From a virus (lineage: Duplodnaviria; Heunggongvirae; Uroviricota; Caudoviricetes), in IMG/VR virus record IMGVR_UViG_2740892031_000004: a DNA stretch of 15,282 nucleotides; one strand, 5' to 3'. Position numbers and translations under genes: made by a program. Below are positions 4,054 through 10,004 of the stretch, piece by piece (positions within the stretch are counted from its first letter, which is position 1; each line of letters opens with the position of its first letter). The notes beneath the pieces are model-generated. The model saw only the letters and a list, made by a program, of their open reading frames with translations. It did no database searches and was not told the DNA's origin.

Positions 4054-6015
4054 TCATGCCGCGATGTCCGCGTTGTTCACTTCCACCTTCACACTGTCAA
4101 TCAGCAGCGTATATGTCGCCGCCTTTGATATGCCTGTCAGTTGCAGTTTGTCCGCCGCCCCTGATGCCGGAGATTTCACCAGTGTGAACGGCGTCCCCCG
4201 TTTCTCATCCAGTACCGGCGTCACCTGAATGCTGTTGTTTCCGGCAAACTCAAAAGCCAGTGTGTGCCATCCGTTATCAAAGACCCCGAACGTATCCAGC
4301 TTCGCATTCGGCTTCTTGTGGTGCATCGCGTTCAGGTTCGTCGCATCCGTCTGCAGGAAGAAGGACATCAGCATGTCGTTGCCTTCCTCTGCCAGCGTCA
4401 CTCCCTCCGGCAGGGACGACAACTGCCAGTAAATGCCCAGGGCAAACTGATTCGGCACCAGTGAACCCGGCAACTTAAACCGTACGCTCACACGTCCCCC
4501 CTTCTTCAGTAACTCCACTCCCTGTCCGGCTGCATCATGCTCCAGAAACCAGATGTGGTTTTCCGGTTTATTCAGTTGCAGGGCCTTACCTCCCGTAGCC
4601 CCCGCATCACTGACCACCGCTTCAGCAATGTTTTTGTTAACATTGTCTCCGCTCGCCGGTTTGTGATAATAGCGCCAGCCCTGTGATGCCAGGTCTTCGC
4701 CGGACGCCAGCAGACTCATCAGGGTTCGGTTACTGACCGGGGCTTCCGGCTCTCTCTCCGTACCTTCACCGGAAGGTCCGGTGGGCTTCACCGTATCAGG
4801 CTGTTTTCCGGTAATGAATTCAGCGTTTCTCCCGGCATGCACAAGAATCGCCGTTGCCAGACGGTCGGAAATAATCCCACGACGTGCCCATGATCCAAAA
4901 TGCGTTTTACGGTCGGCCGTCGTCCAGGTTTTGGCGTCCGTTCGACCACCGGCTCCGTAATACCCAATATCCGCAACATCCGGATCTTCTGACGGCTCGT
5001 TGGTACCCACATTTCGCCCGTTTTCATCCGTCATAAACGGCACAAAGAAGATTTTTTTTGCGGATTTCGTCTTGTATGCACCATACACCGCATCGTATTG
5101 CGAAGAATAAGTCTGCTTCCAGTAGTAGGTCGTGTCGCCACAAATCCAGGGAACCGATGACGGAGAGCCCCCGAGACACTGACCTCCGAATTCCGACAGG
5201 TCAGAACGATATTTTTCCACCATGGAATCAAACAGCCCCGGCTGAGTGGCGTATGCACCCTGTTTCAAATCAAACTCGCCCTGCATCCAGACCACTGCAA
5301 GCAGAATATTTTTAGGGTTGGCCTTCAGTGCGGCCTGAGTACGGGTAAGCAGGTCCTTGTACAGTGGCTTATCAACACCCCAGCGTGCCGAGGTCTCGCT
5401 TGCGCTGGTGGATTCGCTGAAGGTACCTTCATCGCCCGCCAAAAATGCAGAACCACCACGGCAGCACGGAACCAGAAGAATACCGGCATTCGCCGGAATA
5501 AACGGCAACAATTTCTTCGCGATATGTAATCCCTGCCCCACGCATCCATACTGAGCTGCGCTGGCTTTCGGGTGTGAAAACTTACTCAAATCCTGAACAT
5601 CATGCAGGCAGTGGTCCGCAGGAATAATGTCATTGTAGTTACAGGACGCACCACCCGGCGTGACAGTGCTGCGACGCGCCAGCTGTTTAATACGCGGGTC
5701 CGGACGGTCATATGTCTCCGGCAGCGGAAGCCCTTCACCATACGCCATACCGTTTGACCGCCCGGCTAGGGCAACAACAAAGTAATACTCCGGGTTGCTG
5801 GTGGTGCTGATAACTGCGCCTTCTCCATCCGACGGCTTCACCACCACAGGTGTGGTGACATCACCTTCCGCCGCAATGGCCTGCATCAGGGTATAAGGCG
5901 TGATGGCCACCGGACTGCCAAATGGCTGCCACCCCTCCTTCAGTTTTTGTGTCAGTCGTTTCGCAAGGTCTGACGGCGATGCCGCCCTGACAACATCATA
6001 GTGTTTAAATGCCAT
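4054..6015 (-). CDS. nanS-p: prophage NanS-p-type sialate O-acetylesterase (DUF1737 N-terminus plus SASA esterase region)
   Basis: 653 aa from ATG at 6013-6015 (ORF track gives 658 aa from 6030, which lacks an SD). N-terminus MAFKHYDVV...EGWQPFGSPV matches the DUF1737 pattern seen in the large yjhS/nanS-like proteins downstream of stx in EHEC prophages. Same position relative to Q and S as in Stx phages. Confidence 0.75.
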   Translation of the reverse strand: MAFKHYDVVRAASPSDLAKRLTQKLKEGWQPFGSPVAITPYTLMQAIAAEGDVTTPVVVKPSDGEGAVISTTSNPEYYFVVALAGRSNGMAYGEGLPLPETYDRPDPRIKQLARRSTVTPGGASCNYNDIIPADHCLHDVQDLSKFSHPKASAAQYGCVGQGLHIAKKLLPFIPANAGILLVPCCRGGSAFLAGDEGTFSESTSASETSARWGVDKPLYKDLLTRTQAALKANPKNILLAVVWMQGEFDLKQGAYATQPGLFDSMVEKYRSDLSEFGGQCLGGSPSSVPWICGDTTYYWKQTYSSQYDAVYGAYKTKSAKKIFFVPFMTDENGRNVGTNEPSEDPDVADIGYYGAGGRTDAKTWTTADRKTHFGSWARRGIISDRLATAILVHAGRNAEFITGKQPDTVKPTGPSGEGTEREPEAPVSNRTLMSLLASGEDLASQGWRYYHKPASGDNVNKNIAEAVVSDAGATGGKALQLNKPENHIWFLEHDAAGQGVELLKKGGRVSVRFKLPGSLVPNQFALGIYWQLSSLPEGVTLAEEGNDMLMSFFLQTDATNLNAMHHKKPNAKLDTFGVFDNGWHTLAFEFAGNNSIQVTPVLDEKRGTPFTLVKSPASGAADKLQLTGISKAATYTLLIDSVKVEVNNADIAA

Positions 6016-6208
6016 GGTTCTTTCCACCATCTGAAAAATAATTCTTTAAAATACCTGACATGTAATACAGAAAAAACACAAAACCATACCTTAAATAAAA
6101 ACCTCATCATCAAGCAGATATGCATGGATAAACTACAAGACGAGATATAAACCACCCTGCATTTAAATAAACAATAAACAACATCAGAAAAATAATTCTG
6201 CTCTATGG

Positions 6209-6275: not shown

Positions 6276-6611
6276 ATGAAGTGGATTGTGATTGATACAG
6301 TTATCCAGCCATCATGCGGAATATCTTTTTCAGTCATATGGAGTAAAATAAAATTAATAATCTGGTATCAATCGGATGCTTTCTTACCTCCTGAAAGTAT
6401 ATTTACACTGACTCACACAGGTATCATGCTCAATAACAAAGTGCTACCTGTAACCATTTACAACGTAGCACCATTCAATAAAACATTCTGGAATTTAATC
6501 AAAAACAGCCAGGAATGTCCTACAAATACAGATAACGTATTGAATGAATGCTTTAATAACCGTTGCACTCTGCAAATATGTCCTTATGGACTAAAACAAC
6601 AAAGTCCATAA
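6276..6611 (+). CDS. hypothetical protein (111 aa) in an AT-rich islet; only convincing + strand gene outside IS2
   Basis: ATG at 6276 with AAGGA SD 6 nt upstream. The AT-rich coding sequence contrasts with flanking phage genes. C-terminal cysteine cluster (C81, C92, C97, C102). Stop codon lies inside a perfect 12-bp hairpin. No homolog recognised. Confidence 0.45.
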
Positions 6612-6625: not shown

Positions 6626-6667
6626 TCTGACAAAATCAATATAAACAGCCCCTCCGGAGAGGGGCTG
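6626..6667 (-). terminator. candidate intrinsic terminator (minus strand)
   Basis: GC-rich 9-bp stem CAGCCCCTC / GAGGGGCTG (6646-6667) with 4-nt loop, followed on the minus strand by UUUAUAUUGAUUUUG. Confidence 0.4.
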
Positions 6668-6981
6668 GAGAGTGGCGCTATGTGCCATTGCATGATGCCG
6701 GGTGCCTCCCGGTGAGTTCAGTATCAGCACCTGAACCCGCACAGAAAGGATAAGGGTCGGTGACAAAACACCAGTTGCTGATTGCCCCTCCGCACAGGGG
6801 GATTCACCATGCCAGTTTCTTTTAACAAACTCCCCGCAAACCAGACAACAGTCAACCGCCTGAATTGTGAGGTATTTAAAAATTTCTCCAGATAACTGAT
6901 ACCCGGCTAACAGTCTGGCGTTTTCTTTTTCAGCAACGGGAAAGCAACAACCACCACACCCACCAGCCGCCCATTTACCAC

Positions 6982-7008
6982 AAATAAAAAAGCCTTCAGG
7001 ACTGAAGG
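6982..7008 (-). terminator. candidate intrinsic terminator (minus strand) at the end of the small ORF
   Basis: Stem CCTTCA / TGAAGG (6993-7008) followed on the minus strand by CTTTTTTATTTG (complement of 6982-6992). Confidence 0.45.
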
Positions 7009-7193
7009 TGTCTGTAACAACCAAACTGATAGTCTGCCAGACCCGCCATAACAAGCTGGGTCAGTATTAACTGGCAGCGTTCGCGTGAAAGGTAAGTATT
7101 CTGTGCAATCTCCCCGACTGTCGCCGGTTCGGTGACGCTTAACTCATTAAACACCACTCTGGCGGTTTCGGTCATATCCTGCTGTTTTAGCAT
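6996..7193 (-). CDS. small protein (65 aa) with helix-turn-helix-like segment
   Basis: ATG at 7191-7193 with AAGGGAAAAAG upstream; MLKQQDMTETARVVFNELSVTEPATVGEIAQNTYLSRERCQLILTQLVMAGLADYQ... The ORF track extends to an ATG at 7314-7316 that abuts the terminator T-run and has no SD. Confidence 0.4.
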   Translation of the reverse strand: MLKQQDMTETARVVFNELSVTEPATVGEIAQNTYLSRERCQLILTQLVMAGLADYQFGCYRHLQS

Positions 7194-7316
7194 GTCTTTT
7201 TCCCTTTTCTGGTTAACGTAACATACCAATAACTCTTGTCGGAAAAGCCAGCAAGCTGAAAGACCGGTATTCGCAACCACCAGCGCGTTTAATGTTCTGT
7301 GCCGTTTTTCAGGCAT

Positions 7317-7340
7317 AAAAAAACCCGCAAAAAGCGGGCT
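7317..7340 (-). terminator. intrinsic terminator about 80 nt downstream of Q (tR'-like)
   Basis: Stem CCCGC / GCGGG (7324-7338) with AAAAA loop; on the minus strand the hairpin is followed by a T7 run (complement of A7 at 7317-7323). Position matches the lambdoid pR'-qut-tR' layout. Confidence 0.55.
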
Positions 7341-7417
7341 CTTTCAAATGTCCATGTCTGCTATTCGCCTCGTGGTACAGCTTTGCGAAGCGTACCGGAA
7401 TTGAAGCAGTTTTTACG

Positions 7418-7972
7418 TCAAAAAGCAATAACTTTTTCCTCTATACCAAAAGCCATAACCATTGGTTTGTACAAAATAAATTCTGCCACCTTTAGCCAAT
7501 GCTCAATGCGTCTTTCACAGGTTCTTAAACTCCATTCCGGGTGTGCATCATTCAGCAGTTCAGCCATTTTGCGCTTAGTCATCCCCCGCCCCACATAACG
7601 CTGACTCAGGACATTGAGCAGCCCGGGATAGCCTGCCAGGACTTCACCAATAACCCTGTCGATTATTAACGCCTCTGAATCGGTACAATGTGCCAGCCAG
7701 CTTTTTTGATTGCCGTTGATCATATCCCGCAAAAAAGCCTCAAGTTCAGGTTTGTCCAGACCAGCTTTTTTCATCCTCCGGAGCGCCTCGTTAATTGCCG
7801 TTTTTGTCAGCTTTTTAGAGGTCAGTAATTGGTTGAACATATTTCCCGTCTTACCGCCGCCAATATACGACCACCGCCCCCACATCCGTAATTTCCCCTG
7901 GATCCAGACTGCTTCCAGCGTTTTTAGACGTAAATGCTCGCCGCTTTTGCCTGTAATTTCCGGATATATCAT
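7418..7972 (-). CDS. Q: late-gene antiterminator Q (Phage_antitermQ-like)
   Basis: 184 aa from ATG at 7970-7972 (ORF track starts at GTG 7984, overlapping the rusA stop). Sits directly upstream of a terminator and the lysis genes, and downstream of rusA. Family call is from recalled Q sequences. Confidence 0.75.
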   Translation of the reverse strand: MIYPEITGKSGEHLRLKTLEAVWIQGKLRMWGRWSYIGGGKTGNMFNQLLTSKKLTKTAINEALRRMKKAGLDKPELEAFLRDMINGNQKSWLAHCTDSEALIIDRVIGEVLAGYPGLLNVLSQRYVGRGMTKRKMAELLNDAHPEWSLRTCERRIEHWLKVAEFILYKPMVMAFGIEEKVIAF

Positions 7973-9848: not shown

Positions 9849-10004
9849 TTACTCCTCAGGTTCGTAAGCTGTGAAGACAGTGACCTCCGTCTGGCCGGTT
9901 CGGATTCGTACCTCGCAGAGGTCTTTCCTCGTTACCAGTGCCGTCATTATGACGGTTAAACAGATGACGATCAGGGCGATTAACATCGCCTTTTGCTGCT
10001 TCAT
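9849..10004 (-). CDS. hokD: Hok/Gef-family type I toxin (51 aa)
   Basis: Minus-strand translation MKQQKAMLIALIVICLTVIMTALVTRKDLCEVRIRTGQTEVTVFTAYEPEE matches the Hok family and is nearly identical to my recollection of HokD/RelF. AAGGAG SD 9 nt upstream of the ATG at 10002-10004. Below the 60-aa cutoff, so absent from the ORF track. Confidence 0.85.
   Translation of the reverse strand: MKQQKAMLIALIVICLTVIMTALVTRKDLCEVRIRTGQTEVTVFTAYEPEE

Follow-up and report, generated by a model that had tools for sequence, protein, structure and literature searches.

In phage lambda the late operon opens with the pR'-qut-tR' region, in which a Q gene is followed by a late promoter with a promoter-proximal -10-like element, a short terminated transcript (the 6S RNA, 194 nucleotides, nt) and an intrinsic terminator, and the next accepted gene is S. 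In the Shiga toxin (Stx) phages of the Stx1 and Stx2a types the terminated RNA is 258 nt long, and the short RNA StxS follows the same late-leader logic (PMC7547250). In Gifsy-1, an antiterminator gene, a promoter and a short terminated RNA, IsrK, precede open reading frames (ORFs) that are transcribed by read-through only (Hershko-Shalev et al., 2016; PMC4825925). A further relevant system is M.EcoGII of Escherichia coli O104:H4, a methylase of 349 amino acids (aa) that methylates adenine in any context, is very similar to the enzyme of phage 1720a-02, and is described as unexpressed in the lysogen and as doing harm once it is made (PMC5778455); its homologues are likewise silent in O111 lysogens (PMC6602927). 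In this paper we looked at a stretch of 15,282 nt from a tailed phage (IMG/VR virus record IMGVR_UViG_2740892031_000004; called here the window), where a 65-codon ORF lies downstream of a Q-like gene, between two terminator-like hairpins that we name T1 and T2. Comparison of related loci establishes, as far as sequence can, the order Q, late promoter, T1, leader, winged-helix gene and T2, together with a linkage of the gene to a methylase of the M.EcoGI/M.EcoGII type. We give a probability of about one half to the reading that this region is the head of the late operon, gated by two terminators, and that the small protein is tied to the methylase module.

The evidence that carries this reading comes from the genes that follow the ORF elsewhere. 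IMG/VR holds at least 584 loci with the ORF, and flanks and modules were compared in 80 of them. In 63 of these 80 informative loci a gene for a DNA methylase of family PF01555 (N6_N4) starts 150-152 nt past the ORF stop codon. In the phage collection 21 records cover at least 80% of the methylase 5' region, and every one of them has the ORF as well; the ORF without the methylase does occur, for example in PhiR5_1 and in the window. The linkage is deep, as homologues of the small protein with only 48%, 62% and 45% identity, on independent contigs, are encoded 147-151 nt upstream of such a methylase, and this spacing holds despite genes inserted between Q and the late promoter. A fourth distant homologue belongs to a decayed prophage from which the methylase is absent. 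E. coli O104:H4 encodes, in this order, an antitermination protein, the ORF, a 349-aa methylase, transfer RNAs (tRNAs) and the esterase. Phage 1720a-02, in which the two genes adjoin, ranks near the top of the matches for the ORF and also for the methylase 5' region. The gene after the ORF in most loci thus resembles the M.EcoGI and M.EcoGII genes in encoding a beta-class methylase of 349-352 aa, and the published silence of these enzymes in lysogens and their toxicity fit a placement behind two terminators. The searched part of the text of PMC5778455 mentions neither an upstream gene nor terminators, and the window, unlike those loci, has no methylase. Judged from the compared loci, the ORF is the upstream member of a portable cassette that heads the late operon and consists of the leader, the winged-helix gene, T2, a structured spacer of about 150 nt and the M.EcoGI/II-type methylase, and that stands behind at least five types of Q and pR' by recombination. 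This partnership goes beyond what the first-pass annotation of the DNA had noticed, and it is the usual context of an ORF whose partner has been lost in the window.

A small protein with a DNA-binding fold, encoded just upstream of a methylase that is harmful if expressed at the wrong time, brings to mind the controller (C) proteins of restriction-modification systems. C proteins are Xre-type helix-turn-helix (HTH) dimers that bind C-boxes upstream of their own gene, which is co-transcribed with its neighbours without an intervening terminator. The present gene differs in encoding a winged helix and in being separated from the methylase by a terminator and a structured spacer of 150 nt, and membership among the C proteins failed on both points at which it could be judged: the leader holds no C-box-like inverted repeat and the fold is not of the Xre type.

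The ORF itself runs from an ATG at 7193 to a TGA at 6998-6996 on the minus strand, has the RefSeq entry WP_000917765.1, and is annotated either as a "TrmB family transcriptional regulator" or as hypothetical. Codon variation was analyzed in 84 loci with 41 distinct ORF sequences; the ratio of nonsynonymous to synonymous polymorphism (pN/pS) is 0.09, 28 of the 41 variable sites fall on the third codon position, and the exact length of 65 codons is kept in all 84 loci. A longer version of 106 codons from an ATG at 7316 was rejected, as the extension is not conserved and is broken by stops or indels in other loci. On the strength of the low pN/pS, the invariant length and an AlphaFold2 model of winged-helix topology with a mean predicted local distance difference test (pLDDT) score of 92.4, the ORF is a genuine gene, and purifying selection on it is strong. 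The gene is also widely spread: its homologues form 334 protein clusters at 78-100% identity (word-indexed search) in Escherichia, Shigella, Salmonella, Klebsiella, Citrobacter and Buttiauxella, and the 271-nt segment of the window that holds the ORF, the proximal leader and T2 has 3705 copies spread over 2141 of 5426 complete E. coli genomes, a single genome holding as many as 6. Across the 80 IMG/VR loci this segment is 94-100% identical, and the conservation is well beyond what chance would give.

One could argue that the conserved element is the RNA or DNA, namely the terminators, the leader structure and the Chi sites, and that the ORF is incidental. In support of this, two Chi sites flank the ORF and 11 are found in the window against 0.57 expected, hairpins and a long-range structure are predicted, and the last 75 nt of the leader are as conserved as the ORF. 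Such a view is hard to hold against the pN/pS of 0.09 with variation mostly at third positions, the confident fold prediction, and the retention of the reading frame at 45-62% protein identity where the DNA has diverged, and we consider it extremely improbable.

What kind of protein does the gene encode? The first-pass annotation had proposed a late DNA-binding regulator on the basis of an HTH-like segment. The segment held up, as the AlphaFold2 model (from a 30-sequence alignment) gives a canonical winged helix a1-b1-a2-a3-b2-b3 with a beta-hairpin wing, its secondary structure being helices at residues 9-15, 26-33 and 37-49, a bridge at 24 and strands at 53-56 and 59-62 of the 65-aa protein. 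The best-conserved stretch is CQLILTQLVMAGL, in helix 3. A search with hidden Markov models for DNA-binding folds gave only sub-threshold Pfam hits, to TrmB, MarR_2, HTH_24 and DprA_WH; the TrmB match (PF01978) reaches 18.0 bits against a cutoff of 25.6 bits (E = 0.0027), so that membership in this family failed, and no NCBIfam model matches the protein. TrmB proteins typically carry a coiled-coil dimerization domain and a C-terminal effector domain; these extra domains are absent here, the protein being a single winged-helix domain. The significant match is to phrog_331 (residues 1-64, E = 5.5e-37, 126.8 bits), which is a family of unknown function. In Foldseek the model reaches TM-scores of 0.7-0.8 to the winged helices of OhrR, MarR and IclR, and equally good matches are winged helices that do not bind DNA, such as the dimerization domains of O-methyltransferases, SelB and the N-terminal domain of MotA. 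A specific fold relative was sought in the PDB and BFVD, and only generic winged helices were returned, all with E > 1e-3. The family is narrow, with 61 related sequences among 1.84 billion representatives in an exhaustive HMMER scan that found no link to any characterized family, and PADLOC reported nothing meaningful for the ORF. The protein thus shares topology and weak Pfam TrmB and MarR_2 matches with the winged-helix domains of MarR, TrmB and IclR proteins, and differs from them in having no dimerization or ligand domain, in falling under every Pfam cutoff and in being mildly acidic. Among the papers searched a single one mentions the gene, which it places between a 184-aa antiterminator and stx2e under the name "TrmB family transcriptional regulator" (PMC9729726).

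The proposal of a late DNA-binding regulator did not gain from these results: the family has no known function and no NCBIfam model, the fold matches are generic, the isoelectric point (pI) is 5.1, and no operator was found. In its general form the proposal would be that a Q-dependent DNA binder switches other phage or host promoters independently of any methylase. The fold is compatible with that, as are the position of the gene as the first late cistron behind many Q types, its very wide distribution and the strong purifying selection. Yet the partner that stays at a fixed distance of about 150 nt, down to 45% identity, is the methylase and not a lysis or structural module. The acidic protein has no dimerization element, the window holds no repeated candidate operator besides the Chi-containing repeats, and in well-studied lambdoid phages, lambda for one, no such factor is encoded at this place. 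A general late-gene regulator is therefore less likely than a role tied to the methylase, and we regard it as unlikely.

The start of the operon can be followed in the DNA upstream of the gene. The Q-like gene (7972-7418, minus strand; RefSeq coding sequence WP_000640021.1) encodes a 184-aa antiterminator of the DUF1133 type, which scores 352 bits for DUF1133 and 32.6 bits for Phage_antitermQ (PF06530; cutoff 26 bits) and belongs to phrog_753, "anti-termination protein Q-like" (2e-80). Downstream of it lies a candidate late promoter, the putative equivalent of pR' (7389-7428, minus strand), with a -35 hexamer TTGCTT at 7428-7423 that overlaps the Q stop codon, a 17-nt spacer and a -10 hexamer TTCAAT at 7405-7400; 5 nt after the -10 there is a -10-like TACGCT (7394-7389), a possible sigma-dependent pause element. 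The pattern TTGCnn-17-TTCAAT-5-TAnGCT, followed after about 60 nt by a terminator, is common to six DUF1133-type Q cassettes, among them those of phages 683R6 and KpF5, which lack the winged-helix gene and have tRNA genes following instead. Its geometry resembles that of lambda pR' (TAAATT, 6 nt, AACGAT). The terminator is T1 (7317-7346, minus strand), with the stem GCCCGC/GCGGG at 7339-7324, a loop UUUUU and a T7 tract at 7323-7317. Hairpins were folded with free energy, z and 200 shuffles as control; together with its flanking A/U pairs T1 has -18.2 kcal/mol and z = -5.6, and none of the 200 shuffles folds as well.

Among the 80 loci at least five unrelated classes of Q and late promoter stand upstream of the module, each with its own Q family, and at least seven T1 stems are seen, including GCCCGC, CCACCG, CCCCGCC and CUGCCG, a GC-rich stem with a U-tract being present in every Q class. 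The constant module starts at the T-tract of T1 and runs to 40 nt beyond T2. Because the stem changes with the Q class while the module stays constant from the T-tract on, T1 is, to judge from this pattern, part of the Q and late-promoter cassette and the functional counterpart of tR'. One class makes the likeness to lambda direct. In loci L016, L053, L012 and others the promoter reads TTGATT-16-TAAATT-TGCyCT-AACGATGGG and aligns column by column with lambda pR', with its -10 hexamer and with its sigma-dependent pause element, near letter for letter, and T1 follows about 50 nt past the AACGATGGG pause element, as compared with tR' after 194 nt in lambda. The terminated RNA of the window would be about 75 nt long, shorter than its lambda and Stx phage counterparts. 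A further difference from lambda is that a protein-coding, regulator-like gene and a second terminator come after the tR' equivalent and before any lysis gene. In three loci (L001, which is phiP27, L088 and L089) genes have been inserted between Q and its late promoter, namely a GIY-YIG nuclease gene, a DUF2971 gene and a HigBA-like pair, and the promoter-proximal element TGTTAAGAGTGGTTACTTCGCC remains attached to the winged-helix module.

Another assignment was weighed for these signals, in which T1 would terminate the early (Q) operon, the true late promoter would lie near a homologue of the small RNA STnc100 further downstream, and the ORF would be an orphan between operons. The STnc100 homologue (206 nt) is about the size of the lambda 6S RNA and ends in a strong terminator, a TTGACT hexamer stands just upstream of it, and a published analysis of an Stx2e prophage with the 184-aa Q type reported no PR' or qut (PMC9729726). 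Against it, pR' and AACGATGGG are directly upstream of T1 in the lambda-type loci, no -10 element stands at the right distance from TTGACT, and the cargo is in the wrong place: in phiP27 the stretch from the ORF to the lysis genes includes stx, in other loci STnc100 comes after the cargo, and since Stx is known to be transcribed from pR' (PMC7547250), pR' must lie upstream of the cargo. STnc100 as a 6S-like pR'-tR' RNA was for these reasons ruled out, and we hold the whole assignment to be very unlikely. With T1 as the tR' counterpart, the comparison gives the DUF1133-type Q proteins a candidate late promoter with a pause element, where the published analysis had found none (PMC9729726).

Between T1 and the gene lies a leader of 123 nt (7194-7316, minus strand) that is 84-100% identical across loci, with its proximal 75 nt or so nearly invariant; it holds a Chi site at 7284-7277 and a Shine-Dalgarno sequence AGGG at about 7205-7202. 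No sigma-70 promoter was detected in it, either in the window or in a variant that carries TTGACA, so that read-through from the late promoter is the simplest route of expression. Folding predicts a long-range pairing between the leader and codons 1-17 (UUGGUAUGU with GACAUGCUAA) that buries the AUG; in the alignment 98.8% of the cells are paired, yet the changes are only one-sided and of wobble type, and the shuffles give no support. We therefore treat this AUG-sequestering structure as hypothetical.

The gene ends in T2 (6986-7008, minus strand), a terminator-like hairpin with a T6 tract that was flagged by the terminator scan. Its stem CCTTCA/TGAAGG at 7008-6993 (loop GUCC) is followed by a C and the T6 tract at 6991-6986, and the UGA stop codon (6998-6996) forms the first three bases of its 3' arm. 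In the commonest variant (60 of the 84 loci) the stem has 7 pairs and -10.5 kcal/mol; in the window a G-to-A change (Arg62His) abolishes the outer G-C pair. T2 is present in all loci of the E. coli clade, and its stem is kept while the loop and the C-terminal residues of the protein vary. In these respects the arrangement drawn in the first-pass annotation stands: a 65-codon ORF is the first gene after a tR'-like terminator that closes the Q cassette, with an equivalent terminator in every Q class, and its stop codon lies in the stem of the next hairpin. The expectation that the ORF and both hairpins would be conserved in related prophages was borne out for the ORF, for the position of T1 and for T2 among the closer relatives, and failed for T2 in the distant homologues.

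The position of T2 at the stop codon, together with a possible leak-dependent expression of the gene, also suggests a different role, in which the ORF would be a moron expressed in the lysogen. Its product would be made at a low level by leakage past the tR' equivalent, T2 would end a monocistronic mRNA, and the protein would act on prophage or host genes, for example in the control of induction. The model for this is Gifsy-1, where antQ, a constitutive promoter and the short terminated IsrK RNA are followed by translationally silent read-through ORFs including orf45-anrP, with a ribosome-binding site or AUG sequestered by upstream RNA (PMC4825925); the leader-ORF pairing predicted here would bury the AUG in a similar way, T2 would end the transcript exactly at the stop codon, and the intact gene persists without a methylase in 17 of the 80 loci. 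On the other side, T1 is strong (-18.2 kcal/mol), the predicted RNA structure has no covariation support, T2 is absent in the distant homologues, and the genes that follow are those of a winged-helix protein and a methylase and not orf45 and an antirepressor. There is also no membership in the isrK family: the RNA from Q to T1 matches IsrK (RF01394) at 7391-7318 with 18 bits against a threshold of 50 (E = 0.61), which is probably chance because comparably weak matches occur at unrelated places in related loci, and a tblastn search of the phage collection with the Q protein of the window returned no Gifsy phage. The likeness is thus one of architecture only, with Gifsy-1 as the nearest functional precedent for genes supplied by terminator leakage. 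On this balance we find the moron doubtful.

The reading that we prefer, a late-operon head with two-terminator gating and a protein tied to the methylase module, can be put as a sequence of steps. In the lysogen the constitutive late promoter would make an RNA of about 75 nt that ends at T1, and the few polymerases that leak through T1 would transcribe the small gene and halt at T2. Leakage that meets a second terminator has a precedent in the read-through of the IsrK terminator in Gifsy-1 (PMC4825925). T2 would then be a second safety barrier before the toxic methylase, and the terminator at the end of STnc100 a third, before the lysis genes, so that methylase, downstream cargo and lysis genes would be kept silent in the lysogen. 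After induction the Q-modified polymerase would pass T1, T2 and the STnc100 terminator, and the winged-helix protein would be made with the late genes. Translation is known to weaken terminators that are located at a stop codon. A ribosome close behind the polymerase would cover the 5' arm of T2 and weaken it, and as the stop codon is inside the stem, T2 would be most effective on untranslated leak transcripts and least effective on well-translated ones. As for the protein, its most likely field of action is the methylase module, which it would control as a small binder of nucleic acid or else join or inhibit directly, and this is the weakest step of the scheme. A stronger version, in which the protein is a dedicated controller or neutralizer of the methylase and T2 is a translation-sensitive gate that would let methylase transcription pass only while Q-modified, ribosome-coupled transcription complexes translate the small gene actively, is tentative at best.

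Several observations weigh against the preferred reading. The candidate promoter of the DUF1133 type agrees with the consensus at only 7 of 12 positions, and the promoter scan did not flag it. T2 is weak in the window (-6.8 kcal/mol, z = -2.3, with 5 of 200 shuffles as good), and its U-tract is absent in the 48% and 62% identical homologues, which still precede a methylase; T2 is thus not essential to the gene pair and is a feature of the E. coli clade. The intact ORF without a methylase in 17 of the 80 loci, the window included, makes a methylase-independent role possible. The protein is mildly acidic, with a pI of 5.1 and only 5 basic residues, an unusual composition for a strong DNA binder. 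The dimerization helices of MarR and TrmB proteins are missing, and no operator for the protein was identified. An operator was considered in a 12-bp inverted repeat, GGCTGGTGGGTG-N7-CACCCACCAGCC, which lies between T2 and the methylase (L011:3226-3256, L088:2480-2520 and L089:4215-4250) and is perfect in methylase-bearing loci. Its variation, down to 48% protein identity, consists of wobble-compatible and compensatory changes, as a conserved RNA hairpin would show and a protein site would not, and with this stem-like variation and the truncation of the repeat in the window the operator assignment is disfavoured.

Another question is what happened to the methylase in the window, where no PF01555 gene is found about 150 nt past the ORF. 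The first 40 nt past T2 are conserved in all loci, and the window diverges inside GGCTGGTGGGTG, the left arm of the inverted repeat. When the segment after T2 (6907-6985, minus strand) was compared with L011:3199-3350 and L023:5300-5440, it was found that the window reaches the second Chi (6967-6960) and then the junction, and continues with the 3' end of a longer DUF3927 gene, which in L023 is preceded by GCTGGTGGCGGGTG; both junction sequences contain Chi. The simplest reading is that a deletion between Chi-containing repeats removed the methylase, the tRNA genes and other cargo and left a 24-aa DUF3927 coding sequence (6981-6907) as a 3' remnant. Chi (GCTGGTGG) is frequent in the window in general, its 11 copies in 15.3 kb far exceeding the 0.57 expected from shuffles, and the two coding-strand copies that flank the small gene (7284-7277 and 6967-6960) lie within an 11-nt direct repeat, GCTGGTGG(T/G)TG.

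The window as a whole is part of a lambdoid prophage of B2-type E. coli, with 99.8-99.9% identity to ATCC 25922 and related strains, and RefSeq annotation was taken from the matching region (coordinates of locus L003 are those of the window plus 501). Nearly all RefSeq genes of the region are on the minus strand, and in the order of transcription they are a DUF968 gene, a RusA gene, the DUF1133 "Q-like" gene (7972-7418), the gene of the 65-aa hypothetical protein (7193-6996), the 24-aa "DUF3927" sequence, a NanS-p-like esterase gene (6030-4054), and then holin, lysozyme and spanin genes. The STnc100 homologue lies at 6637-6841 on the minus strand; its match to Rfam RF02076 is full-length (133.5 bits against a gathering score of 47 bits) and ends in a strong hairpin at 6667-6646 (-20.3 kcal/mol); counted from the late promoter, this is the third terminator ahead of the esterase and lysis genes. 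RefSeq places an IraM-like anti-adapter gene of 111 aa (6276-6611, plus strand) inside the late region, on the other strand, with STnc100 on one side and the esterase gene on the other, and no Pfam match was found for it. The esterase gene (4054-6030, minus strand) encodes 658 aa with DUF1737, SASA and DUF6645 domains, and is intact in the window and frameshifted in the annotation of ATCC 25922. Upstream, in the early-right region, there is a hokD-type toxin gene (9849-10004, minus strand), and Rfam sok matches are found in related loci.

As far as the compared loci tell, the element is a common module that has been annotated before and is uncharacterized, and the window holds a methylase-less copy of it. 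The local importance of this copy is modest, as it is a derivative that has lost its partner. Of the complete E. coli genomes, about 39% hold the module, and often more than one prophage of a genome has it. In several Stx2 phages, namely phiP27 (Stx2e) and records named Stx2a-, Stx2d- and Stx2k-converting phages, it separates the toxin genes from the late promoter. A conserved, structured leader and an additional terminator at this place would influence how strongly all downstream genes, those of Shiga toxin and lysis among them, are expressed both at the basal level and after induction. The deep linkage to the methylase is also a lead on how the toxic M.EcoGI/GII enzyme, a widely used research tool, is silenced and released in nature. 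If the small protein were indeed a controller of the methylase and T2 its gate, temperate phages would have a new and safe means of deploying a toxic, genome-wide DNA modification, and in many Stx2 phages that gate would stand between pR' and stx.

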